From Candidatus Nanoarchaeia archaeon (lineage in GTDB: Archaea; Nanobdellota; Nanobdellia; SCGC-AAA011-G17; DATDVL01), in assembly GCA_035289925.1 (NCBI GenBank), contig DATDVR010000008.1:849-64848 (forward strand): DNA of 64,000 nucleotides, in the 5' to 3' direction. Positions 1,235 through 62,444 of this stretch are shown in pieces (positions within the stretch are counted from its first letter, which is position 1; each line of letters begins with the position of its first letter). The notes under the pieces are model-generated. The model saw only the letters and a program-made list of their open reading frames with translations. It had not been told where the DNA came from and did not search any database. The translations under genes and the position numbers were made by a program.

Positions 1235-1894
1235 TTATTTTCTAGATATATCTAAAAGTAGCTTTTGCATTTCAGGTTTAAGGTTTCCATTTAATTTTTG
1301 AACAACTTGATCTAAAGATCTGGCCTTGACCAATGAATTCCAAACATTCCTTCTATCAATTTTAGATTTTAGTAAAGCATTTGCAGCTTCATAAGCACCA
1401 TTATTAGTATCATAACATTCAGGATCAAAGTAAAACATTCCCATTGCAAGCTCAAGATAACAAGCAGCAACCTCATCTATATAGCCCCTATATAGCAGAC
1501 CAGTATGAATAAATAAATCAGAAAATGGAATTCTAAATCTAAATTTAGAAAAATTAGAAGCATATTTTAGATGACCTAATTCATGTAATAATATTGAAGA
1601 TTCTTCATCACAATCTCCAGTCTTATTGATCAAAATTACCCTTGCTGAATCTGAAAAAATTCCACAAACATCGCTATCAATATCATCAGAGTATCCAACT
1701 TTACAAGTAATTTTTTCTCCAAAAAAGCGATAGTATTGCCTAAGAGCATCCCTCACTACCCTACGATCTACATTTCCAGATATTTTGACAGTACGTCCTT
1801 TATAAATTTCTATCATGCCATCTTTTACAGAAAATAAAGTTTCCATGTCTGGAATATATTTCCTACGATTAAGACTTTCAATTTGCCAAACCAT
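1235..1894 (-). CDS. putative HExxH zinc metallopeptidase (ImmA/IrrE-like)
   Basis: 219-aa ORF containing SSILLHELGHLKY. The HELGH motif in this context resembles the COG2856 / DUF955 ImmA/IrrE family. The family assignment rests on motif resemblance only. Confidence 0.5.
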   Translation of the reverse strand: MVWQIESLNRRKYIPDMETLFSVKDGMIEIYKGRTVKISGNVDRRVVRDALRQYYRFFGEKITCKVGYSDDIDSDVCGIFSDSARVILINKTGDCDEESSILLHELGHLKYASNFSKFRFRIPFSDLFIHTGLLYRGYIDEVAACYLELAMGMFYFDPECYDTNNGAYEAANALLKSKIDRRNVWNSLVKARSLDQVVQKLNGNLKPEMQKLLLDISRK

Positions 1895-1933
1895 AATAAG
1901 CCAGAATTTAATTAATTTATAAAACTTATGAAA

Positions 1934-2221
1934 TTATATTTTATTTAGTAAATTATCAAGATTGCTGGATTTTTTGATGAGATTGTAAGGCTTAGGTATA
2001 TAACCCTTTATTTTGCCTAAGGCTTCTTCAAAAAATATCTTTTTTCCATCAAAAATAACAATTTCTTTATCTCCCAACCTTAAAAATAGTTCAATGTCAG
2101 AATTCTTTTGGTACATCAATAACGGAGGAGTCCAAGCACTGTACCAAACTCTAAAAGAAGGTCCATTTGGTATTAATAATTCCTTAGAATAACTTTCAGA
2201 ATAACAATCTTCCTCATCCAT
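1934..2221 (-). CDS. hypothetical protein
   Basis: 95-aa ORF with no recognisable motif. Confidence 0.4.
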   Translation of the reverse strand: MDEEDCYSESYSKELLIPNGPSFRVWYSAWTPPLLMYQKNSDIELFLRLGDKEIVIFDGKKIFFEEALGKIKGYIPKPYNLIKKSSNLDNLLNKI

Positions 2222-2259
2222 AAAATAAGTAATTGCTTAAGGCTTATAAATATTATGAA

Positions 2260-2387
2260 TCTCTTCGGCCGGACTCGAACCAGCAACCCCTCGGTATCAG
2301 CTGATCATCTTTCATTCAAAGCATGCTGCTCCGTCAGATAATGGGTAATCCCTACAGCCGAGTGCTCTACCATTGAGCTACGAAGAG
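2260..2387 (-). tRNA. tRNA-Tyr (anticodon GUA) with a 56-nt intron (2296-2351)
   Basis: The reverse complement reads CTCTTCG TA GCTC AATGGTA GAGC A CTCGG CTGTAG [56 nt] A CCGAG GGGTT GCTGG TTCGAGT CCGGC CGAAGAG A. Confidence 0.8.
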
Positions 2388-2433
2388 ATGAATTAAAAAG
2401 AATAAATTTAGCTTATAAAGGTTTCTGTAAAAA

Positions 2434-3837
2434 TCAGTTTATTGTAACGTTTCTTGATTTTACTGTAACTACTTGCCCTTTGTCGTTTACAAAATGCACA
2501 GCTGCAGCAGGCAATACTAAGCTTCCGACAATATCAATCTTGCTCTTGACTTTATATGAAAATATTCTTTCTTCTCCAATTTCCAAAGAAGGAACATTCC
2601 AAATCAATCTTATGTTGTTGCTTCCTTTCTGCATATGGTCTGGCTTCAAGGTTCCAAACTCTTTTGTAAGCATCAAGTGATCAGGTATCAAATCTATTAT
2701 TTTTATTTCTTTTACAGGTTTTCCAGCCTTATTTTTTATATGAAGCATTATCTTAAGTTCTGTAATTCCTTCCTCAACATCGTGGCTTATCTTGAATACT
2801 CTCTTCTTTATATTGACCCCCCTTGTTAGAATATAATAAGCTAGTAAAATAAACAATGCCAATGCAAACAACACTATGAAAGGAGTTCTGTAATCAATCA
2901 GGATGTTTATTACCTGCTTTTCCCCAGCTCCTACATTGAATTCCCAGACATACATCCCGTCTTGATAGCTGGCTGCAGGATCAACTTTCGTAAAAAATCT
3001 TGAAATTCCTGAAATTTTGTATTCAATTCTTCTTTTTATTGGAGCATTGCCTTCATTCTCATTTGTTATTGTAATTTTTTTTCTTAAAAATCCAGATGCA
3101 ACGTTCTTGCTTTCCTTTATGTCAGGATTGGAAGCTACGGCAAAGTCAGAAGTGTAAACTCCTTTCAATTCCTGGTCCTTGTAGATTCTTATACTCAAAG
3201 TATAGACGCCAGGTTTTGTATCTGGCTTCAAGTCAATGTCAAAAGCTTCTGTAAAATCTTTTCCAGGTCTGAAAGTCAAAACTTTGCTTGCAGAAAAAAC
3301 CTCTGAAGTGACATATACTTCTGCATTCTCAATCAATATGTTTCCATTGTTCTTGAAATCAACAGCTATGCCGTTAGTATCACCAGGGATAAGCTCATCA
3401 GGCAAATGAGGAGTAACTTTTATTAAATCTTTTGAAGACGTTACATGCATCACTAATAAAGTTTCTTCTTTGACACTTGAATCAATTACAGAATGCGCTT
3501 TTAACGGTATCTCATAGTTCCTGCTTTCAGTTGTTGTGTCCATAGTTCTTATTGAAACTTTTACTTTTTTGCTAGCTCCTCCAGCAATGTCAAAGAAATT
3601 AGGCTCAATTTTAGCACTTAAAGCAAAGTCTGAAAAAGGAAACAAATTCAATTCATCTACAAATACTTTTATTGTGTCGCTTCTGGGCTGGTTGTTCACT
3701 ATTGTGACATCATATACAATTTCCCCCCCAGCTGGCACGTCAGGATTGTCAGTTTTTACCCCAAAAGTCAGGTCAGCCGCATAAGCAGAAGTCGTTAAAA
3801 GTAGAATTGCTGCCAATACTATAATGAGCCTCTTCAT
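2434..3837 (-). CDS. membrane-anchored surface protein with Ig-like (CARDB/NEW3/DUF11-like) domains
   Basis: Has an N-terminal signal peptide (MKRLIIVLAAILLLTTSAYA) and beta-rich repeats. An internal TM segment (FIVLFALALFILLAYYIL) is followed by a further beta-rich domain. Confidence 0.6.
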   Translation of the reverse strand: MKRLIIVLAAILLLTTSAYAADLTFGVKTDNPDVPAGGEIVYDVTIVNNQPRSDTIKVFVDELNLFPFSDFALSAKIEPNFFDIAGGASKKVKVSIRTMDTTTESRNYEIPLKAHSVIDSSVKEETLLVMHVTSSKDLIKVTPHLPDELIPGDTNGIAVDFKNNGNILIENAEVYVTSEVFSASKVLTFRPGKDFTEAFDIDLKPDTKPGVYTLSIRIYKDQELKGVYTSDFAVASNPDIKESKNVASGFLRKKITITNENEGNAPIKRRIEYKISGISRFFTKVDPAASYQDGMYVWEFNVGAGEKQVINILIDYRTPFIVLFALALFILLAYYILTRGVNIKKRVFKISHDVEEGITELKIMLHIKNKAGKPVKEIKIIDLIPDHLMLTKEFGTLKPDHMQKGSNNIRLIWNVPSLEIGEERIFSYKVKSKIDIVGSLVLPAAAVHFVNDKGQVVTVKSRNVTIN

Positions 3838-3866
3838 TGGAATCAGCTATTATAACTTCGAAGTGA

Positions 3867-3874
3867 TATATAAA
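3867..3874 (-). promoter_or_regulatory. candidate TATA box (TTTATATA) for the 2434-3837 gene
   Basis: Minus-strand TTTATATA lies about 30 nt upstream of the ATG at 3837. This spacing fits an archaeal promoter giving a very short leader. Confidence 0.4.
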
Positions 3875-3883
3875 CATTATGGT

Positions 3884-3913
3884 GAAAAAAAGTACTAAAA
3901 TTTGAACAAAAAA
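3884..3913 (-). terminator. candidate oligo-T terminator after rad50
   Basis: The minus strand directly after the rad50 stop reads CCTTTTTTGTTCAAATTTTAGTACTTTTTTTCACC. Archaeal termination typically occurs at T-runs. Confidence 0.35.
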
Positions 3914-3915
3914 GG

Positions 3916-5970
3916 TTATGCAGCCTCAGAAATATGGTTTTCTTTCTTGACTTTTATTATGTTTTCAACAAAGCTTTCTACTTTGCTTTCATGGCTTACT
4001 AATATTATCTGGTTAATATCTAGTTCATCAAACACATTCTTCAACCTATCTAGTTGTTCTGAAGAAAAACCATCAGTAGGCTCATCAAGAATTATCAAGT
4101 CTCTTGTTTTTATGGTGTTCATGATGCTGTTTACTACTTGATTTAGTCCTAACCTATAAGCCAATGCAACAGCTGTCTTCTCTCCTCCAGACAAATACCC
4201 ATAGTCAATCTCATGCTCGTTCTGTATTATTACAGGGCTGAAGTCATCGCTTAGCTTCAAGCTTATGCTCTCGGCATCTACTAGCATGAAAAACCACTTT
4301 TGCACTAAGTGATCAAAGTCATAATGTATCTTCATCATTACTTTTTTCTCCATAGTTTCAACAAGGTTAGTTAAAGTATTTTCTATGAAGTCCTGCAGTC
4401 CAATAAGATTGTCAAGGTTTTTCTTTATCTTAAGCTTGCTTTCAATTTCTTTTTCAATTTCTGCAGAAAAATTCTCCAAGTCTTTTATTTTTACTTCAAA
4501 TTCTGCCCTTTCTATGTCCAAGCTTCTTTCTTCATTCAATAGACTGTCAAATTCTTTCCTTGCTTTGCCGTAATTTTCTTCCAAATTCTTATTTTCATTA
4601 AAATCTTTGCTCAATATTGATATATTCCTTGTTAATTTATCCTTTTCAGATGTTAAAACTTTTATTTCTTTATTTATTCTTAATAAATTAACTTCCCTCT
4701 CTCTTAAATTCTCAGCCTTTACCTTGGTTAATTTTAGATTGCTTTCAATGGTTCTTAACTCTTCAAGTTCTTTCTTTGCATTTTCAAGTATTTTTTCATT
4801 TTCTCTTTCTTCTCCCTGTATTTTCTTAAGTTCAAGCTCAAATTTTGATATCTTATCATTTTCATTCTTGCTAATATTTAGAATATGGTCATTGCTTACA
4901 TTCTGCTTGCATAATGGACAGACATCAAGCTTTGAAATGTCATTTTTAATCTCATTTGCAGAGTTTATCTTGTGTTTTAGCTCTTCAGTTTTCCTTATTA
5001 TCTCTTTTATTTTAAGTTCAATTTTTTCAATATCTATTTTCTTAGTTTTGAATTTATTTTCATCAAAATCCTTTAGATTATTGTTAAACTCTTTTTTCAG
5101 CTCTATAATATTTTTACTTAATGTATTTTCCTCATTTAATATTACATTTAATCTTTCAGATCTTAAGTTAAGAAGGCTTTCGCTTGTCCTTAATTCCTCG
5201 CTTATCTTGCTGAATTTCTTCATCTTGTCTTCAAAGATTGATATTTCTTTCTTTTTTTCAGTTAATTTTTCTTTTAGTAAGCTTAACTTAGGTTTAAGAA
5301 GATTTAATTTATCATTTACAAGTTTTATTTCCTTTATCTTGCTCTCCTTCTCAATTTTTTTAGAATCTAAATCATAAATTTTTCCTAAAAACTCTTTTCT
5401 CTTTTCCTTTATCTTGCTTACCACAATATTTGCATTGTCTTTTATTCTCTTGTACTTGTCAATTCCAAAAACTTTTCTTAATGTGTCAACCCTATATTCT
5501 GCTTCAGTAGTCAGGATAGCCTTCATGTCCTCTTGTGGCGTGTATACTGTATATCTGTAGATTAAAGACTTGCTTTTAGTAAGAAGTTCTTTTGGATAGT
5601 TCAGCAAATCAAGTACATGCTGTTTCAACTCAACAGCTCCAAGTTCTTTTTTGTTGTTGTTCACTATAATGCTTCCAGTGTCCTGAGCTATTCCAGTGCT
5701 GCTTTTTTTTAGATTTCTTTTGACAACTATATCCTTGTCATCTATCTTGAAATGTAATTCAACACTGCCTTTATTTTCGCCTTTTCTTAGAAGTCCGTCT
5801 CCGCTTAACTCACCTTTAAGCAGTCCAAAAAGCGCAAATTCAACTGCCAGTAATATTGTGCTTTTTCCAGATCCAATGTCGCCGGAAAGCAATGTGCTTC
5901 CATTTTCAAAGTCAACTTCCTGACTCTTGTAGCTTCTTATGTTTTCCAGCTTCACTTTTTTTATAATCAT
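3916..5970 (-). CDS. rad50: DNA double-strand break repair ATPase Rad50
   Basis: Carries Walker A (GDIGSGKST), a long coiled coil with a CxxC zinc hook (CPLCKQ), the ABC signature (LSGGEKTAVALAYRL) and Walker B (LIILDEPTDGF). It overlaps mre11 by 4 nt. Confidence 0.9.
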   Translation of the reverse strand: MIIKKVKLENIRSYKSQEVDFENGSTLLSGDIGSGKSTILLAVEFALFGLLKGELSGDGLLRKGENKGSVELHFKIDDKDIVVKRNLKKSSTGIAQDTGSIIVNNNKKELGAVELKQHVLDLLNYPKELLTKSKSLIYRYTVYTPQEDMKAILTTEAEYRVDTLRKVFGIDKYKRIKDNANIVVSKIKEKRKEFLGKIYDLDSKKIEKESKIKEIKLVNDKLNLLKPKLSLLKEKLTEKKKEISIFEDKMKKFSKISEELRTSESLLNLRSERLNVILNEENTLSKNIIELKKEFNNNLKDFDENKFKTKKIDIEKIELKIKEIIRKTEELKHKINSANEIKNDISKLDVCPLCKQNVSNDHILNISKNENDKISKFELELKKIQGEERENEKILENAKKELEELRTIESNLKLTKVKAENLREREVNLLRINKEIKVLTSEKDKLTRNISILSKDFNENKNLEENYGKARKEFDSLLNEERSLDIERAEFEVKIKDLENFSAEIEKEIESKLKIKKNLDNLIGLQDFIENTLTNLVETMEKKVMMKIHYDFDHLVQKWFFMLVDAESISLKLSDDFSPVIIQNEHEIDYGYLSGGEKTAVALAYRLGLNQVVNSIMNTIKTRDLIILDEPTDGFSSEQLDRLKNVFDELDINQIILVSHESKVESFVENIIKVKKENHISEAA

Positions 5971-7139
5971 TTCCAGACCTCATCCAAGTCAAGCATCTTC
6001 AAGAAATCTTTCATGACTCTGTTTTCAAACTCAATGTTTCTTTCACCTTCGTCTTTCTCTTTGTTTAAAATAGTGATTATATTATTTACATTTAATTCAG
6101 ATTTTATTTCCTTGATTAATTTAGATTCAATCTCCTCAACTGTGCCTTCATCAACCTTTAATTCTTCCATCTCTCTGCTCTCAAGTTTTGCAGCGTTTCT
6201 CAAAACAAAATAGCTGTCTTTTAAATTTGAAGTTATTTCCTTGAAGTTTACATCACCAGGCTTCCCAGATTTTAAAGTTCCTTCAATCCTTATAGTTACA
6301 ATCTTGTCCTTCAAGTCATGCTTGTTTAATTTATCCTTTATTTCTTCCTCAAGCTCTTTAGGATTTTTATTGTTCGCATCAAAATTGAAGGTTTCAACGT
6401 CCTTTATTTTAACAGGAACATGCTTGTAGTTTAATTTATCATCAACAATGTAAAAACCTCCATGCTTAAACTCCTCTAATTCTTTGAAGTTATTTGGGAA
6501 CAAAGCTCCTGGATAAGTTATCAGTCCATATCCTTCTTTCTGTTTTGCAAAAATGTAGTGCGGATGTCCGCCTGCATAATAATTAAAGTTCTTAGGCAAA
6601 GAATTTGTAGGCTCTCCAGGTGCCATCTCCAAAGAAGCAGGCTTGAATTCCTCCAAAGTTGCATGGAATAAAAATATTTTAAAGCCTTTTTCTTCTTCTA
6701 AATTTGTTCTGTCAAGTTTTTCGTATATTTTTTTATCTAAGCCGCATGCTAATCCTAATATTCCAGTAATCTTGGCTCCAGTCTTGTCAACTGTAAATTC
6801 TAGTTTGTTTCCGTTGAGCTTGAAAACATTGTGGCATAATCCAGCTTTCTCCAGAACTTCAATCATAGTTTTTCCAGATGGAGAATAATCATGGCTTCCT
6901 GGAATTAAGTAAACTTCAATGTCGTTTTCCTTTAACTTAGCCAAGCCAGCAGCAACATCTCTTATCTGGTCTATGGGCGGCAAAGCAGTATTAAATAAAT
7001 CACCAGAAATTAATACAAAGGCAACATTCTCGCTTATGCATATGTCCACAGCTTTCAAGAAAGCCTGAATACTCATTACTTTAAGCTGCTCCTCTCTCCA
7101 CCCTCCTATATGTACATCAGAAAAATGTGCAAATTTCAT
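5967..7139 (-). CDS. mre11: DNA double-strand break repair nuclease Mre11
   Basis: Shows calcineurin-like phosphoesterase motifs (HFSDVHIG, SGDLFN, GSHD, GGHPH). It lies immediately upstream of rad50 and is coupled to it. Confidence 0.9.
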   Translation of the reverse strand: MKFAHFSDVHIGGWREEQLKVMSIQAFLKAVDICISENVAFVLISGDLFNTALPPIDQIRDVAAGLAKLKENDIEVYLIPGSHDYSPSGKTMIEVLEKAGLCHNVFKLNGNKLEFTVDKTGAKITGILGLACGLDKKIYEKLDRTNLEEEKGFKIFLFHATLEEFKPASLEMAPGEPTNSLPKNFNYYAGGHPHYIFAKQKEGYGLITYPGALFPNNFKELEEFKHGGFYIVDDKLNYKHVPVKIKDVETFNFDANNKNPKELEEEIKDKLNKHDLKDKIVTIRIEGTLKSGKPGDVNFKEITSNLKDSYFVLRNAAKLESREMEELKVDEGTVEEIESKLIKEIKSELNVNNIITILNKEKDEGERNIEFENRVMKDFLKMLDLDEVWK

Positions 7140-7203
7140 TTAAACCCCAAGAATAACCTATCCTATAGATTTATTAAAGTTTTTATATTAAATAAAGTAA
7201 AAT

Positions 7204-10200
7204 TTACTGTTTAGTCTGATTAATAAAAGTAATAATCCTATTTTTAATAGCAGCAGTGGAAGCATTTGAAAGTTCTAAAACATTCAAGACAGGGGTTATA
7301 TTAAACATGTTCAAGAAAGTTTCATTTTCGCTTATATAGTTGAAGGCCCAAGTTTGGTTATTTAGTCTTGTAACTACATCAAAAACGCCCAACATTTGGC
7401 TATTAAATTGATTTCTTGCGTAAATTGCCTGTTCTAAATATTCTAATTGACTCCCGTTTATTGCACTATTTCTTATGCCTTCAACTATTGCCTGTTCAGC
7501 ATCAGTTTCATTAGCAGAAAGCTCTACTTTTATAGTAAAATTAATCTCAGAAAAAGCACACAAATTATTTGTATCACAAGTTTTGACATTCCATAGATAA
7601 GAATTGGTTGGTAGATTTTTAACTTCAAACAGAGATTTATTATAATTTCCATCAATAGCAATAGTTTGATTTAACTGCCAAACTCCACTAATATTTATAT
7701 ATAAAGAAGCGTTATTTAACCCTTCTGCATCAGAATTATTTGCTATAAATGTGATGTTGCCAGTGCTGTCAAGAGAATTATTTAATGGGTTTATCAAAAC
7801 AGTAAGTGGCATGTCATTTATCCCAGCAACATTAACAATTATGGTTGTTGAATTTTGTTCTTTTAAGCTATCAAATGCAGTAAGGTTTAGTTCAACTTTG
7901 CCATATTGGTTGGGGTAGGTAGAAATATTTATTATGTTTGTGCCATTTTCTATTGTTAAATTAAATTTAGTGGTATCATTCAGTGTAAACGTCCATTCTA
8001 ACATTGAATCAGTGTCATTAAAGTCTGAGACATTTCCCGATAGATTTAAGGTTAAGTTTGTATCCTCATTTATGGTGATATTAATTAAATTAAAGGTTGG
8101 CAGCCCATTTACTTTAAAGTAGCTTTGAGTAAAAGTCCCGTTTGCAATTCCATCGCTAGGATTTAGAAGTACGTAATAAGTGATTGTTCTGTTTAATGTT
8201 GTAGAAATATTAAACTTTGTTTCATCTACACCACTAACAACATTAAAGGTGTATACTGTAGGACCTGAAGACGTATTTAAATTAACCCTGCCATAATAAG
8301 TCAGATTATCGCCATCAGAGTCTACTGCATTGCTCCAGTTAATGCTAGGAGTCAAATCAGATATAGAAGAATTTCTAGGGTTTGTTATTGCAGGTTTACT
8401 AGGATCTAAGGGATCAGTTTCAAATTCAGGGATGCTATTGTAAACATAAAAGCTATGCAACGTGCCCTGCCCCAAGTTGTTTAAGCTGTCATTTGCATAA
8501 TAGCGCCAGCTTACATTCTGTCCTCTGCTGTAATTCCCGATTCCAAGCGAAAATAAATAATCGATATCTGTGACTGTCCAGTTTTTAAATTGTCCACTTG
8601 AGTTTTCAGAAAAAAATACTGTATCCACCCCGCTTGGATCATCTATACTTGCGGTAAAGCTTATCATATTTTCCTTTGTTACTTGTTGAGGAAAATACAA
8701 TTCGTTGCTTATGCCTGGTGGTAGATTATCTAGTGTAAACTCAAAAGTCTGGCTTGTATTACAATTATTTACAATATCGCAGCTTACAATAGCCCAGTGA
8801 TAGATTCCAGCATTTGTCAAATTCAAATAAAAAATAAAATCTGATTTTTTTATCTCGGTATAATTTGTCTGATTTTCTGAGAAGACACCTGTAAAATCAC
8901 CAAAAAGTGTTACATTTTTTATTATGCTATTATCTGCAATAGTAACATTGAATGCGATAAAATTATTATTAAACGCACTGCTATTAGCAGGAGAGTTTAA
9001 TGTCATATTTGGCGGCAAAGTTTCCTTAACATATTCAAGATATACTTCATCCAATGCAGGAGTAAAATCAGTATTTTCTGTATTAAAGTAATTCGCATAC
9101 TGGAACAAAGTTTTATTTGAGAAAAAACTCTTGTTTAATATATAAAATTGCGATTCATTTTCAAAGTAAGAATCTGCATTTCCATCAGGTCCAATAAAAG
9201 CCTCAGAATCACAGGTATCCTCACAAATTCTAGCCTGCATCTTTAGTGAAACTGCGCCTTGAACATACATTTTTTCTATTTCAGAAGGCGATAAGCTTCT
9301 ATTCCATATGATAACTTCGTCCATAGTCCCATTTAAAGAATGGTCAGTTCCAATTGACTCATTATATCCTATTAAAAGCACTTGGGTATTATTGGCTAAC
9401 TTGCCTATAATTGATCTATTCCCAGTTTCCCTTCCATTTAAATAAATTTTTAGCTCATCAGATGTATGATTAAATACCCCAACCAGATGAGCCCAAGAGT
9501 CTTTTGTTATAGAAGTATTAGAAACGGCAACTTTCCCAACATTTGACGCATTAATTATTGCAAACGAAGCGTTATTGCCAGTAGTTATTCTCAGCCAATA
9601 ATGGGCAGGTTTTCTTACAAGGTATGTTGTTGTAGAATTATCATACTTTTTTACCCAAGCGCTTATTGAAAAGCTTCCATTAAAGTCAAGACTTTTGTTA
9701 TATTTGACAGTTATATGTGTTTTATTTGATGTGTTAAAAGTATATGCAGATAAAAACCTTCCAGAAATGTTGTAAGTTGGGCAGTAGCCAAAAGAACATG
9801 TTCCATTATTTTTTCCAGTTTCATCTTTAAAGAATGTTGCATTCTCGCCAGCTCCATTGTTAAGGTGCATTAGCAATACTATGCTATTGCTCATGTTCAT
9901 TTGCTGGCCATATTTAATGGGAGTAGTAAAAGTAAGGTTATCCCAACTCATGCCGCCAGCATATATTCTAGAAGTATAATTTCCATAAGAATAATAAGGG
10001 ATTTGATAACTCGTTGAATTTGCCAATACAACATATCCGGATGCATTAGAAGTAGTGTTATAATAAGTTCCTTCATCAAAATCAGTTTGTGTTGAGGTAT
10101 TATAAGTTGGATAAGGAATTAAGTATTCTTTGTTATTTATATATGTGCTTACATTATAGTTATCTTTAGTATTATAAGGCACCATGAAAAAGCCATGCAA

Positions 10201-25345: not shown

Positions 25346-26275
25346 TTATGCCTGCGTCAGTTGTTCAAATACTTCATTTAGTGTTGGCTTCCTTACCTCT
25401 ACTTCTATTATCCTGTCATTTAAGTTGTCAACCAAGCTGAAAATTTCCTGCATAATTTTCTCAGGATTGTCAGTGAATATTTTTAGTCCAGATTCAGCCT
25501 TTATGATTTTCTCGACATTCAAGTTTCCAAGATGATTTATTATATAATCATAATTGTTTGAAGCCACTTCAAGGTATATTTCCTGATTCTTTGTATATAA
25601 TTCCCTTAATTCGTCTATGCTCCCTACTTTTAATATTTTAGAATTATGCAAGATTGCAATTTCATCGCATAGTTTTTCCATTTCCCACAATAAGTGAGAT
25701 GTTATTATTATTGTAGTTCCTGTCTGGTTCACTTTTTTTATCAAGTCAATCATGTCTCTTCTTAGTCTTGAGTCTAGATCCTCAGTTGGCTCATCTAAAA
25801 TCAATATTTTCGGATAATTTATTAAGGCGCATGCCAAGTCAAGCCTCTTCTGCATTCCTCCAGAAAGATTTTCAGCCACTATATGTTTTTGCTTCTCCAT
25901 TTCCAATAAAGGAAGTATTCTCTGTATGTTTGTTTCTATTACACTTTCAGGAAGTCCATACAAAGTGCCAAAATAATTTAAATTTTCTTTGACAGTTAGT
26001 TTAGGATAAAAAGAATTGTTCTGCGTTGCAAATCCAAAGTGCCTTTTGACTTCGCTTGCTTCCCTGTCTATTCTTTTTCCTTCAAAAAGGACGTTTCCTC
26101 TTGTCGGTCTGTAAAATCCTACCAAAGTGTTAAGCAAAGTCGTTTTTCCAGAGCCAGAAATGCCTATAATCCCTAATATTTTTCCTTTTTTTATGTCAAG
26201 GTCTATATTATCAAAAACCATCAGTTTCCTAAATTTCTTGGTCAAACTCTTGACCTGCAGAATCACCTCTTCCAT
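25346..26275 (-). CDS. ABC transporter ATP-binding protein
   Basis: Carries Walker A (GISGSGKTT), the signature motif (LSGGMQKRL) and Walker B (ILILDEPT). Confidence 0.9.
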   Translation of the reverse strand: MEEVILQVKSLTKKFRKLMVFDNIDLDIKKGKILGIIGISGSGKTTLLNTLVGFYRPTRGNVLFEGKRIDREASEVKRHFGFATQNNSFYPKLTVKENLNYFGTLYGLPESVIETNIQRILPLLEMEKQKHIVAENLSGGMQKRLDLACALINYPKILILDEPTEDLDSRLRRDMIDLIKKVNQTGTTIIITSHLLWEMEKLCDEIAILHNSKILKVGSIDELRELYTKNQEIYLEVASNNYDYIINHLGNLNVEKIIKAESGLKIFTDNPEKIMQEIFSLVDNLNDRIIEVEVRKPTLNEVFEQLTQA

Positions 26276-58323: not shown

Positions 58324-58656
58324 TTAAATGTAATTTTTGGCTTTTTGTATTGAACCTGACAATATCAAAGTTCTTATCAAAACTGCTTCTTTGTTTATAT
58401 TCTTTACTAATATCAATGCTGATCTTAAAATATCTGCATATTTGTTGCTTACCTTCAAGATAGCCTTGTTTCCCTTGGCTTCAACCAAGTCTAAATTAGC
58501 TTTAGAAAGCGTGAATTCGCCTAAAAAATCCTTTATTTTATTGAATAATTCAGTCTTAATTTGAGAGACTTCCAGCTTTTTATCTGCTATAATCTCAAAT
58601 GCTAAGTATCTTTTCTTTTGTCTTAAACTTGGTAATAACGGCTTGATTTTAGCCAC
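58324..58656 (-). CDS. rnp2: RNase P protein component 2 (Pop5)
   Basis: The N-terminus is KPLLPSLRQKKRYLAFEI, from a GTG start. It lies in the conserved position upstream of psmA. Confidence 0.75.
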   Translation of the reverse strand: MAKIKPLLPSLRQKKRYLAFEIIADKKLEVSQIKTELFNKIKDFLGEFTLSKANLDLVEAKGNKAILKVSNKYADILRSALILVKNINKEAVLIRTLILSGSIQKAKNYI

Positions 58657-58807
58657 CTTAAAGAAAAACTCTTTAAATCCGGTTTTCCTTTTCTCGTACT
58701 TAACTACTATAGAATTTGGGTTTATAAAGGTTGCTTTTTTAATAAAAAGCGAAAAATAGATTTTTATAGTTAAAAAATGCTAAATATTAGCAAAAATAAC
58801 CAATAAA

Positions 58808-58815
58808 TTTATAAA
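58808..58815 (+). promoter_or_regulatory. candidate TATA box (TTTATAAA) for the ATPase/RloB pair
   Basis: Lies about 22 nt upstream of the ATG at 58838. This fits a leaderless archaeal transcript. Confidence 0.4.
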
Positions 58816-58837
58816 TAAGAGATTTTATAGATATTAC

Positions 58838-60088
58838 ATGATAATAGAAACTTCAGTTGAAAACTACCTATCCATAAAGGATAAAATTATATTTAGTCTC
58901 GAAAGTAGTTCTAGCAAGAGGCTTCTAGATAATTTAATAAAGGTTGATGAAAAAACAAACATACTTAAATCTGCAGCAATATACGGTGCAAACTCTTCTG
59001 GCAAATCTAATTTTATTAAATCGCTATTCTTTATATGGTATATGGTTAAAAACTCTCATAACCTTAATATAGATGCAAAAATTCCAAGAGTTCCTTTTAA
59101 ATTAAATGATATTTTTTTAAGGAAACCTAGTAAATTTGAGCTTATTTTTATCTACAATAATATAAAATACCAATATGGATTCTCTTGCAATGAGCAAGAA
59201 TTCATTGAAGAATACTTATTCTACTGGCCAAAGGGTAGAAAAGCGCAAATATTTCATAGAAAAAACACAACGGAATATAATTTTAAAATAGATAGGAAAA
59301 GGCAAGAACTTATAAAAAGTCAGATGAATAAAAATGTACTTTACTTATCTAGAGCCACACAATTAGGCTACGATAAAACAAAAGACGTCTACAATTTTAT
59401 TATTAATAGTATAGTAATAAATTATAGCCCTATTTGGGCGGATTTTACAATAAAAAAGATTCATGAAGACGAAAAAGTTAAGCAGATGGTTATTGAAGTA
59501 TTACAAAAAGCCGATTTTGGGGGAATACAAGGTATAAGAATAAATAAAGAAAAAAAGAAGTTTAAAGGAGTTGAATTAAAATTAGATAAAAGAGGAACGT
59601 ACTTAAATCCAATTCCTATAGAAGAAAAAGAAGAAGATTTTTATGACATAAAATTTTTACATTCCAACGAGCACGGAAAAGAAGTTGAATTAAATTATCA
59701 AGAAGAGTCCGAAGGCACAAAAAAGACATTAGCTATGCTAGGCTGGATATTTGATATTCTTCAAAATGGTAAAACAGTTTTTATAGATGAAATAGAAGCA
59801 AGCCTACATCCAAATATAATAAAATTTCTTGTTAAGATGTTTAACAATAAAAATAACAAAAAAGCTCAATTAGTATTTACTACTCACAATACAAATTTGC
59901 TCGACAATCAATTATTTAGAAGAGATCAAATTTATATTTGCACAAAAGAGCCAAATAAAAATACCTTAATGAATTCATTTTTAGATTATGAACTAAGAGA
60001 GGGGGTAGATTTTGAAAAAGCATACCTAGATGGCAGAGTTGGCGGTCTCCCATTCATAGATGAAACTTTTTTTGATCAAAAATGGTGA
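58838..60088 (+). CDS. AAA_21/ABC-like ATPase (AbiLi / RloA-like)
   Basis: Carries Walker A (IYGANSSGKSNF) and Walker B with the LHP motif (VFIDEIEASLHP). FTTHN follows. Confidence 0.8.
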   Translation: MIIETSVENYLSIKDKIIFSLESSSSKRLLDNLIKVDEKTNILKSAAIYGANSSGKSNFIKSLFFIWYMVKNSHNLNIDAKIPRVPFKLNDIFLRKPSKFELIFIYNNIKYQYGFSCNEQEFIEEYLFYWPKGRKAQIFHRKNTTEYNFKIDRKRQELIKSQMNKNVLYLSRATQLGYDKTKDVYNFIINSIVINYSPIWADFTIKKIHEDEKVKQMVIEVLQKADFGGIQGIRINKEKKKFKGVELKLDKRGTYLNPIPIEEKEEDFYDIKFLHSNEHGKEVELNYQEESEGTKKTLAMLGWIFDILQNGKTVFIDEIEASLHPNIIKFLVKMFNNKNNKKAQLVFTTHNTNLLDNQLFRRDQIYICTKEPNKNTLMNSFLDYELREGVDFEKAYLDGRVGGLPFIDETFFDQKW

Positions 60089-60678
60089 GAAAAAATGGGC
60101 ATAAGTCAACAAAAAATCTATGGATTTTTTGTGAAGGTAGAACTGAAAAGAACTATTTTAATAAATTGAAATATATTGATAGGATAAGAAGATTAGTAAT
60201 TAAAGCTATAGATGTCACTCATAATAGTGCAGATGGTATAGTAAAAGAAGCAATTAATTTTAAAGAAAAGCATAATAATTTTCAAGAAGATGATATAATT
60301 ATATGTGTTTTTGATAGAGATCAAAATAATAGAGAACAACTAATTAAAGCAAAGTCTCTAGCTGATCAAAGAGATATCAAACTAGTCTTTTCTAATCCTT
60401 GTTTTGAATATTGGATTTTATGTCATTATGGCCATTTTCCAAATCAACAAGAAAAGCAAGAAATAGAGAGGAAAATACTCCGATACTTGGGAAATTATAT
60501 AACTAATGATCCAGACTTATATATTAAAACTAGAGGTAAAATTCAAGAAGCAGTTAAAAATTCTAAAAAGATGTTTAACCAACATATCAGAAATAGAACT
60601 CAAATAATAAGCAGAGAGAGCAATCCATTGACACTTATGTTTGAATTAATTGATTTAATCAATTCTTTTAAAAACTGA
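60082..60678 (+). CDS. RloB-like (AbiLii) Toprim-like protein
   Basis: Contains LWIFCEGRTEKNYF, VFDRDQ and FSNPCFEYWILCHYG, which are the RloB family signatures. It overlaps the ATPase gene by 7 nt. Confidence 0.8.
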   Translation: MVRKNGHKSTKNLWIFCEGRTEKNYFNKLKYIDRIRRLVIKAIDVTHNSADGIVKEAINFKEKHNNFQEDDIIICVFDRDQNNREQLIKAKSLADQRDIKLVFSNPCFEYWILCHYGHFPNQQEKQEIERKILRYLGNYITNDPDLYIKTRGKIQEAVKNSKKMFNQHIRNRTQIISRESNPLTLMFELIDLINSFKN

Positions 60679-60688
60679 ATAAAAGTTT

Positions 60689-61183
60689 TTAATAAACTTC
60701 AACGTCTCTCTTTTTCTTCTCAAAATTCAAGGCTTTCTTGACTTCAGAGCCAGTCATTCCAATAACTTTCCCGAAAGCAATCAAATCTTTAGCACTTCTC
60801 ATCTCAAATTTGTTCTTGGCACCAGAAAATAAAGCCATTCTTACTTTGTATTTTCTGCATAATTTGACATTCTGCATCATTCTTCCAATTATCTTTTGTT
60901 TATTATCAGAATTCAAAGCTAAATTGAAGTCAAATCCGATTGCTATCTTGTTTTCGCTTGCTTCCTTGCATATTACCTGATTCAATCCAGAGCTTCTTGC
61001 ATTCAGCTTGTCCTTTTTTTTGTAATTTTCAACTCCAGTTATAATATCAACATTGAAATTAGAAGCAGTCTTTATTATCTTGTCTTCATCAGCAGTCTCA
61101 AAAATTTTAAAATCTTTGAAAGTGTAAATTTTAGAAAAACCTAAGTTGAACATGCTTCCTTGAAATCTTACAATGTCTATCAT
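60689..61183 (-). CDS. rnp3: RNase P protein component 3 (Rpp30-like), short form
   Basis: Contains DIITGVE...LNQVICKEASENKIAIGFDFNL...KYKVRMALFSGAKNKFEMRSAKDLIAFGKVIGM. This resembles the C-terminal two thirds of Rpp30. Confidence 0.55.
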   Translation of the reverse strand: MIDIVRFQGSMFNLGFSKIYTFKDFKIFETADEDKIIKTASNFNVDIITGVENYKKKDKLNARSSGLNQVICKEASENKIAIGFDFNLALNSDNKQKIIGRMMQNVKLCRKYKVRMALFSGAKNKFEMRSAKDLIAFGKVIGMTGSEVKKALNFEKKKRDVEVY

Positions 61184-61660: not shown

Positions 61661-61939
61661 TTAAGACTTCCTCAAATAAATCTGATCATGATGATCAAAA
61701 TCAACAAACACAATTTTATTTTCAGATTCAATAAATTTAAAAACTAAAACAAAAGAACCGCCAACATGGACTCTTTTTTTATCTTTTAAATCATATCTAA
61801 GATTCTTGTAATGTTCTACATCTGCAGAATTAATAACTTCATCAATCTTTTTTATTGCAGATTCGTAAAGAACTTTATCCCTTTTATATAATTTTTCTAA
61901 TATCTTCTGCAAAGATGGGAGGATTTCGTAAGAATACAA
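61661..61939 (-). CDS. RelE/ParE-superfamily type II toxin
   Basis: 92 aa. The pattern ...LEKLYKRDK..YESAIKKIDEVI.....YKNLRYDLKDKKRVHVGGSFVLVFKFIESENKIVFVDFDHHDQIY is the typical RelE/YoeB-like layout. Confidence 0.6.
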   Translation of the reverse strand: MYSYEILPSLQKILEKLYKRDKVLYESAIKKIDEVINSADVEHYKNLRYDLKDKKRVHVGGSFVLVFKFIESENKIVFVDFDHHDQIYLRKS

Positions 61940-61941
61940 AA

Positions 61942-62181
61942 CTATCCCTCTATTATTTTTCTTAATTCTTTAATATTCTTAAAAGGTATCCCTTTTTCTT
62001 TTTCAAGCTTTTTTAGCTTTACGATATATTCGGGCCTTAATTCAGGTTCGAGCATTTCTTCTCCATATTCCTCAACGACTCTAGTTATTGCTTCGCTTTT
62101 AGTTTTTAGCTTATATTTGGCCTTCACAATATTTAAAACATGATTCACTTTCTCTGGTATTTCTATTATCGCTTGTACCAT
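61942..62181 (-). CDS. antitoxin-like protein (partner of the RelE-like toxin)
   Basis: 79 aa, ending 2 nt upstream of the toxin gene. It contains VNHVLNIVKAKYKLKTKSEAITRVVEEY, a ribbon-helix-helix-like or DUF2683-like segment. Confidence 0.5.
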   Translation of the reverse strand: MVQAIIEIPEKVNHVLNIVKAKYKLKTKSEAITRVVEEYGEEMLEPELRPEYIVKLKKLEKEKGIPFKNIKELRKIIEG

Positions 62182-62235
62182 TTTAACTCCATATTAATAC
62201 AATATTAATATCATATTAATATATAAAGCTTTCTA

Positions 62236-62382
62236 TTAAGGAGATAAGAACTCTTTGATTCTGCCTTTTTTAACATCATCAAAACTTAGCTTTAGTCTGA
62301 CTATAGCATCGTCAGCTATCTCTTCTTTTCTCTTTAATTTTTCATATTCTTTTTTTGTAATGGTAATAGTCTCTTGCTTCAT
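62236..62382 (-). CDS. possible small antitoxin-like protein (48 aa)
   Basis: Below the ORF-track cut-off. It translates MKQETITITKKEYEKLKRKEEIADDAIVRLKLSFDDVKKGRIKEFLSP. Confidence 0.3.
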   Translation of the reverse strand: MKQETITITKKEYEKLKRKEEIADDAIVRLKLSFDDVKKGRIKEFLSP

Positions 62383-62444
62383 AATTTAAAATAATAATCT
62401 TTTCTTTATATACTTTTCTGTGAATTATCCGTAAAATTTTCGGT

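Follow-up and report, generated by a model that had tools for sequence, protein, structure and literature searches.

The window analysed here is a 64,000-nucleotide (nt) stretch of contig DATDVR010000008.1 from a Candidatus Nanoarchaeia archaeon, a DPANN archaeon whose genome assembly comprises 0.916 Mb in 16 contigs and is 88.5% complete. Near its right end lie two plus-strand genes, together called the cassette below, which encode an ABC-type ATPase and a small RloB protein and resemble the abortive-infection system AbiL. They sit between two RNase P genes, pop5 and rpp30 (aa, amino acids; positions are those of the window):

58838..60088, plus strand: ATPase gene (AbiLi-type ABC, AAA_21, Rad50/SMC-like), 416 aa
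60082..60678, plus strand: gene for an RloB or AbiLii-type small Toprim-like protein, 198 aa
60082..60088, plus strand: overlap of ATPase stop and RloB start, ATGGTGA, 7 nt, read from the sequence
58324..58656, minus strand: pop5 (RNase P Rpp14/Pop5), left flank, PF01900 at 6.8e-16
60689..61183, minus strand: rpp30 (RNase P p30), right flank, 164 aa, PF01876 at 1.6e-15

A preliminary description of this DNA had reported two plus-strand genes overlapping by 7 nt and ending 10 nt from the rpp30 stop, with pop5 and rpp30 flanking them on the other strand. The open reading frames (ORFs) and the sequence confirmed the overlap and the 10-nt distance, and the PF01900 and PF01876 matches on the minus strand confirmed the flanks. 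There is room for just two genes between pop5 and rpp30. The ATPase gene ends in AAA TGG TGA, with the RloB ATG inside ATGGTGA, and this overlap suggests that the ATPase and RloB may be translationally coupled. In homologues the RloB start lies ∼3 nt past the ATPase stop, compared with the 7-nt overlap of the window pair.

The ATPase matched Pfam AAA_21 (PF13304) over the full model (1e-43) and PADLOC AbiLi (PDLC02335) over residues 1-412 (2.1e-82, 274.8 bits). Weaker PADLOC matches were obtained to AriA (5e-42), PDC-M12A, HEC-01A, NsnB (9e-10), PtuA and GajA. Conservation was scored in an alignment of 43 homologues, with which the N-terminus of the protein also agrees. Walker A, signature, Walker B, D-loop and H-loop were all found, at columns that are invariant or at least 90% conserved:

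58985..59011, plus strand: Walker A / P-loop GANSSGKSN, residues 50-58; G50, N52, G55, K56 and N58 invariant
59705..59719, plus strand: ABC signature-like motif ESEGT, residues 290-294; E290, S291, G293 and T294 invariant
59777..59812, plus strand: Walker B and D-loop, VFIDEIEASLHP, residues 314-325; D317, E318 and H324 invariant
59879..59887, plus strand: H-loop TTH, residues 348-350; T348, T349 and H350 in at least 90% of homologues

The third of these comprises the Walker B VFIDEIE (residues 314-320) and the D-loop SLHP (322-325). An AlphaFold2 (AF2) model of the ATPase (predicted local distance difference test score, pLDDT, 87.6) showed an ABC head fold, matched by Foldseek to Rad50, SMC heads, the retron PtuA and the OLD structure 6P74 (E 6e-10 to 8e-8, probability 1.00). 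Between the two ABC lobes the model has a helical and beta-hairpin insertion (approximately residues 195-286) with a disordered tip (244-260), at the position of the Rad50 coiled coil. A sequence search of the PDB gave no meaningful match for either protein of the pair.

The second protein matched Pfam RloB (PF13707) at 6.3e-34 over model positions 3-194 of 195, scoring 118.3 bits against a gathering cut-off of 31.5. Its sole PADLOC family match was AbiLii (PDLC02337, 1.2e-24). Conserved positions, scored across 45 homologues, fall in three motifs:

60130..60147, plus strand: Toprim glutamate motif C17-E18-G-R-T-E22; G19, T21 and E22 invariant, E18 in at least 90%
60313..60321, plus strand: Toprim DxD motif D78-R-D80; D78 invariant, R79 and D80 in at least 90%
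60391..60426, plus strand: RloB family motif SNPCFEYWILCH, S104-N-P-C-F-E-Y-W-I-L-C-H115; S104, P106, F108, W111 and H115 invariant

The first lies within FCEGRTEKNYF (residues 16-26), in which Y25 is also invariant, and the second within VFDRD (residues 76-80). RloB has been described as a Toprim member with a conserved glutamate and DxD (PMC12065111). The AF2 model (pLDDT 92.5) has a beta1-alpha-beta2-alpha-beta3-alpha-beta4 core of four strands, with E18 directly after beta1 (residues 11-17) and D78-x-D80 ending beta3 (72-78). This placement on the strands is the Toprim arrangement, as described for RloB (PMC12065111). The best structural match of the model, and the only strong one, was a phage "RloB-like protein" in BFVD (TM 0.82); matches in the PDB were generic Rossmann or flavodoxin-like folds (E >0.002, TM ∼0.3). 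Membership of the RloB family, for which the preliminary description had named a profile search as a check, is thereby shown at the level of sequence. Toprim chemistry, which is most likely, rests on motif positions and the literature.

The pair also agrees with the PADLOC definition of AbiL, since an AbiLi match and an AbiLii match are adjacent and co-oriented, ATPase then RloB. The motifs quoted in the preliminary description (GANSSGKSN, VFIDEIEASLHP, FCEGRTEKNYF, VFDRD and SNPCFEYWILCH) were all present in the two proteins, and its identification of an AbiL-like ATPase and RloB pair was upheld by the Pfam and PADLOC hidden Markov models and by the intact catalytic motifs. Judged from its sequence, this is a canonical, intact AbiL-type pair that PADLOC can call automatically.

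AbiL (AbiLi + AbiLii) is an abortive-infection system of Lactococcus lactis plasmids (Deng et al. 1999, reviewed in PMC13064643). The window pair shares with it a two-gene operon in the same order, an ABC/Rad50-like ATPase followed by a small RloB/Toprim protein, and by analogy it would confer virus resistance of the abortive-infection type. It differs in being archaeal and chromosomal rather than plasmid-borne, in the distance of its sequences from the bacterial prototype, and in its nearest relatives, which form a clade labelled DPANN and Methanosarcinales where named. RloA/RloB pairs also occur in type I restriction-modification loci of Campylobacter (Miller et al. 2005, cited in PMC13064643 and PMC12065111). 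There too a member of the same Pfam family (PF13707) is paired with an AAA ATPase, but no type I restriction-modification genes adjoin the window cassette, whose direct flanks are pop5 and rpp30.

Further parallels are found among systems that combine an ATPase with a separate or fused effector. AbiL has been grouped with the AAA15/21 ABC-ATPase and TOPRIM systems PARIS, OLD, Gabija and MADS (PMC11464382), and its analogy with PARIS has been reviewed (PMC13064643). As the window pair probably does, PARIS (AriA + AriB) joins an AAA15/21 ABC ATPase to a separate Toprim nuclease, and the window ATPase matches AriA at the level given above. The effector, however, is RloB and not DUF4435/AriB (no DUF4435 or AriB match was obtained in Pfam or PADLOC), and the window ATPase is shorter (416 aa versus ∼470-500) with a beta-hairpin insertion in place of the helical insertions of AriA. 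The OLD family, comprising class 1 P2 Old and class 2 Gabija GajA, has the same ATPase and Toprim logic, and the OLD structure matched by the ATPase model is that of Thermus scotoductus (6P74, E 7e-8). In OLD and GajA the two parts are fused, whereas the window has two ORFs; no GajB helicase gene lies between pop5 and rpp30, and the RloB model had no significant match to OLD Toprim structures.

Septu and the retron PtuAB systems are alike in their ATPase fold: retron IA and Ec83 PtuA were among the top PDB matches of the ATPase model (E ∼1e-9), and the PADLOC match to PtuA was weak. Their effector PtuB is an HNH nuclease, unlike RloB, and neither a reverse transcriptase nor a noncoding RNA (ncRNA) accompanies the window pair. 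Variants of Menshen (NsnABC) carry an RloB domain in NsnC (PMC12065111), and so share an ABC ATPase and an RloB-type Toprim effector domain with the window pair, whose NsnB match is weak. Here the differences are that no NsnA (ParB-DUF262) gene lies between pop5 and rpp30 and that the window RloB stands alone, not fused to an inPIN domain.

The cassette has a patchy distribution. RloB was detected in 3/240 genomes of the order: the window genome and two from a single genus that belongs to a different family. The four same-family genomes (56-88% complete) yielded no RloB; in three of these (G001, G003 and G004) the rpp30-pop5 interval lies on one contig and holds other genes, not RloB. These absences support an accessory rather than a core status, as the preliminary description had supposed. 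The closest ATPase homologues are 62-65% identical, with Woesearchaeota, Nanoarchaeota and Aenigmarchaeota (DPANN) as named sources, followed by Methanosarcinales at ∼50% identity; RloB homologues show the same taxonomic pattern. Homologues in DPANN metagenome-assembled genomes already carry the public label "RloB domain-containing protein".

In every homologous locus examined, the ATPase gene is directly followed by the RloB gene. The surroundings vary. One locus (L063) belongs to a defence island that also has GmrSD, an EcoRI-type methylase, Mrr and a PD-(D/E)XK protein; another (L066) is an S6e/eIF2-gamma neighbourhood; and in a genome of the same order (G084) the pair lies with two Schlafen-AlbA2/HATPase_c_4 genes beside diphthamide synthase. 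Same-order copies are 61-62% identical and no closer than copies from elsewhere, which fits independent acquisitions of a mobile two-gene module. L066, the closest homologous cassette, lies near a fap7-like AAA_18 gene and was considered as a possible second case at the same junction; this was rejected, as no rpp30 or pop5 matches occur there.

Within the archaeal exosome superoperon, rpp30 and pop5 are usually adjacent. The superoperon itself is a known feature of archaeal genomes (PMC2695463, citing Koonin et al. 2001), and the preliminary description had presented the cassette as wedged into a conserved pop5-rpp30 string. For the present lineage, a survey of 23 relatives in which one contig carries both genes contradicted this. 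The two genes are adjacent in just two of them, separated by 45 nt in G026 and by 190 nt between matched stretches in G033. In the remaining 21 the gap measures 668-8235 nt and holds one to six ORFs, frequently on the opposite strand. A further ∼12 relatives have rpp30 and pop5 on different contigs. Among ∼40 genomes of other orders of the class that have both genes, these were never on the same contig within 10 kb, and in four that have both on one large contig (G243, G248, G263 and G301) they lie 245-508 kb apart.

The cargo of the gap is varied, including a ZIP transporter, ThyX, a PfkB kinase, an epimerase, an Hjc-like endonuclease (G038) and a HicAB toxin-antitoxin pair (G028). In G019 the gap measures 8.2 kb, and at L059 (G019:C3), 5264-9108, it contains a restriction-type methyltransferase of 914 aa (PADLOC MTase_II, 5e-83) whose specificity domain is C-terminal, beside a DDE transposase of 405 aa. 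Here the rpp30-pop5 junction has received a mobile defence insertion. In nine relatives rpp30 is followed immediately, on the operon strand, by the gene of a large secreted S8 subtilase (634-1194 aa), which may have occupied the gap earlier in some of the order. Fast-diverging opposite-strand ORFs of 225-280 aa without a Pfam match occur in the closest relatives (G001, G003, G004 and G015); those from the same family measure 265-280 aa, and homology can be recognised only between the proteins of G001 and G004. PADLOC gave no match for the opposite-strand gap ORFs of G001, G003, G004, G005 and G015. These occupants are located as follows:

L061 (G018:C1), 1283-4102: S8 subtilase, with homologues in G013, G016, G019, G023, G025, G028, G036 and G038
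L032, 6386-7183; L034, 3950-4777; L033, 1442-3217; L038, 543-2087: opposite-strand gap ORFs of the closest relatives

The gap of G004 also contains two extra small ORFs (73 and 92 aa) with a 4-nt overlap, a layout like that of toxin-antitoxin genes. By contrast, pop5, psmA and SBDS are contiguous in those loci of relatives that reach all three genes. Since 21 of the 23 relatives have varied cargo in the gap, the cassette landed in a pre-existing variable gap, with no tight operon being split.

Truncation of rpp30 by the insertion was also considered and rejected, because its 164 aa lie within the range of its orthologues in relatives (156-256 aa). Rpp30 is short (∼156-200 aa) across the order and much of the class, where the match to the Pfam p30 model is confined to its C-terminal half (approximately positions 70-212 of 214); the N-terminal half of the model matches separate proteins of ∼570-590 aa. 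Either the N-terminal half of Rpp30 is strongly diverged or these archaea have a reduced RNase P p30 subunit.

Base composition sets the cassette apart to a limited extent. Its GC content is 27.4%, compared with a genome value of 33.4% (z = -2.27; 1.9th percentile among 1.84-kb windows), with the ATPase gene at the 7.6th percentile and the RloB gene at the 2.8th (GC at third codon positions 17%). The impression that it is more AT-rich than its neighbours was correct, but the contrast is sharp with psmA-rrp42 (36.5-38.8%) alone, whereas rpp30 (31.5%), fap7 (29.0%) and a nearby toxin-antitoxin pair (26-31%) are also low in GC. The comparison of GC and codon usage proposed at the outset gave a divided answer, GC being low and codon usage being no outlier (distance from the genome at the 71st-73rd percentile among ORFs of similar length for both genes). 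The GC signal is real but modest. It would fit an AT-rich donor, one homologous locus having 28% GC.

The junctions and the wider neighbourhood comprise these further features:

58657..58837, no strand: divergent intergenic region between pop5 and the cassette, 181 nt, 21.5% GC
58808-58817: TATA-like tract of the cassette, TTTATAAATA, read from the sequence
58672-58678, minus strand: TATA-like tract of pop5, TTTAAAG, read from the sequence
60679..60688, no strand: 10-nt spacer between the convergent RloB and rpp30 stop codons, with T-runs around it on both strands

In the divergent region, TATA-like tracts lie ∼20-30 nt upstream of each start codon. Both are predicted promoters and would fit leaderless transcripts; pop5 must have a promoter of its own. 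At the other end, the rpp30 stop facing the cassette is TAA on the minus strand, and the spacer with its T-runs is a putative terminator. No Rfam ncRNA match (E ≤0.1) was found in the 56-64 kb part of the window. The minus-strand order is DUF2683-like antitoxin, YafQ/ParE-like toxin, fap7-like AAA_18 kinase, rpp30, the cassette in opposite orientation, pop5, psmA, SBDS, rrp4, rrp41 and rrp42, with pop5 at the head of the string that runs to rrp42.

The toxin-antitoxin pair of this neighbourhood, a second accessory module, lies directly upstream of fap7 (window 61661-62181, minus strand), <1 kb from the AbiL pair. Its toxin (92 aa) matches the YafQ family (TIGR00053, 4.9e-18) and ParE_toxin, and its antitoxin partner (79 aa) has a weak DUF2683 match (3.1e-5, below cut-off). 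A YafQ-like gene (53% identity) is also found near rpp30 in the relative G005. Between the toxin-antitoxin pair and pyrH is a 263-nt AT-rich spacer (24% GC, window 62182-62444), in which the gene calls of another assembly include a 48-aa ORF. Elsewhere in the window, a 331-aa open frame gave a weak second match of AAA_21 type (3.8e-9), limited to the C-terminal part of the model, at approximately 25694-25951 on the minus strand (G000:C8:26542-26799).

The explanation we favour, and consider quite probable, is that the cassette represents an intact two-gene defence module of the AbiL type, acquired horizontally and inserted in a variable gap, with an ATPase sensor and a Toprim nuclease effector. 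Behind it stand the observed domains of both proteins, their intact catalytic residues, the coupling of the two genes, the patchy distribution, the contexts of homologues and the variability of the site. From the better-studied systems we infer an anti-viral phenotype and a division into sensor and effector, with their triggers and substrate. In PARIS, the ATPase sequesters the nuclease and frees it on sensing a viral protein, whereupon the nuclease cleaves tRNA (PMC11464382). By analogy with PARIS, OLD and Gabija, the AbiLi-like ABC ATPase would act as an ATP-dependent sensor and keeper, keeping the RloB nuclease in check until it is activated or released by a viral cue. RloB may then serve as a Toprim-type metal-dependent nuclease effector that cuts RNA/tRNA or DNA, and such cleavage would lead to aborted infection or cell arrest.

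Several points weigh against this explanation. We know of no archaeal AbiL-type pair that has been functionally tested, and how AbiL itself works is not known (PMC13064643). Comparison of the RloB model with the PDB by Foldseek retrieved no Toprim nuclease and nothing with E <0.001, and Pfam side-matches to Toprim, DUF4276 and OLD-like_TOPRIM were weak and confined to a few RloB homologues. With regard to horizontal acquisition, composition alone does not show recent transfer, codon usage being unremarkable. A search for flanking direct or inverted repeats gave only short chance matches in AT-rich DNA, and no scar; there are no tRNA genes in the 50-64 kb part of the window, and no integrase or insertion sequence marks the cassette.

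Some of the same facts could be read differently. The pair might be a selfish toxin-antitoxin-like addiction module, in which RloB is the toxin and the ATPase the antitoxin, and which persists because its loss kills the cell, with no real anti-viral benefit. PARIS does act as a type II toxin-antitoxin pair, with a toxic nuclease and a neutralising ATPase (PMC13064643, PMC11464382); the 7-nt overlap implies co-expression, a second toxin-antitoxin pair (YafQ/ParE-like and DUF2683) lies in the same 4-kb stretch, and the cassette shows no trace of decay in spite of a reduced 0.92-Mb genome. Toxin-antitoxin behaviour and defence are not exclusive, however, and known relatives do both. Close homologues share a defence island with GmrSD, Mrr and a methylase. 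We hold addiction as the sole role to be improbable. It is less probable still that the genes are an inactive relic, intact by chance and neither expressed nor functional. A reduced genome and an AT-rich cassette would accord with decay, but both ORFs are full length relative to homologues, every invariant catalytic residue is kept, the cassette sequence is identical in independent samples, and a TATA-like element is present at the expected distance from the start codon.

Recruitment to host RNA processing, with a Toprim RNase working alongside the neighbouring RNase P and exosome genes, appears to us very improbable. The location between two RNase P protein genes and beside exosome genes invites the idea, as does the inclusion of RNase M5 among Toprim domains and the cutting of tRNA by the PARIS nuclease (PMC12065111, PMC11464382). 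Yet the cassette is on the opposite strand and is missing from 237/240 genomes of the order, all same-family ones included; homologous cassettes are found in unrelated or defence contexts, and the same gap in relatives is filled by unrelated cargo (protease, ZIP, ThyX, HicAB, restriction-modification methylase). As the assembly is fragmented, incomplete and apparently metagenomic, a foreign contig might in principle have been chimerically joined into the operon. Independent assemblies from other samples (Logan SRR2090153, ENA ERZ4903137) nonetheless contain the pop5 / cassette / rpp30-fap7 junction at 100% and 99.7% nucleotide identity, and the identical ATPase was found on 12 contigs. The second assembly has 10 differing sites, all outside the cassette and mostly at contig ends. 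Recovery of the junction in separate assemblies shows that it is not a chimera, and we give an artefact almost no credence.

Taken together, these results add a catalytically intact DPANN example to the AbiL family and show that a 0.9-Mb genome keeps an AbiL-type module. DPANN archaea are reported to have few, compact defence systems (PMC12988326, PMC12259885), and one more such system is therefore unsurprising. The variability of the gap also weakens the earlier reason for interest, the insertion into a conserved gene string. What is mildly new is that the archaeal exosome/proteasome string is open at the rpp30/pop5 junction in this order, with varied cargo. It is conceivable, although we would not count on it, that throughout this DPANN order the rpp30-pop5 gap acts as a landing spot for accessory cargo, refilled repeatedly between essential genes. 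In that case, the gap would be a predictable site at which to search reduced archaeal genomes for new genes of defence or host interaction. The rpp30/pop5 junction is in any case a site at which the accessory genes of poorly known archaea can be compared.

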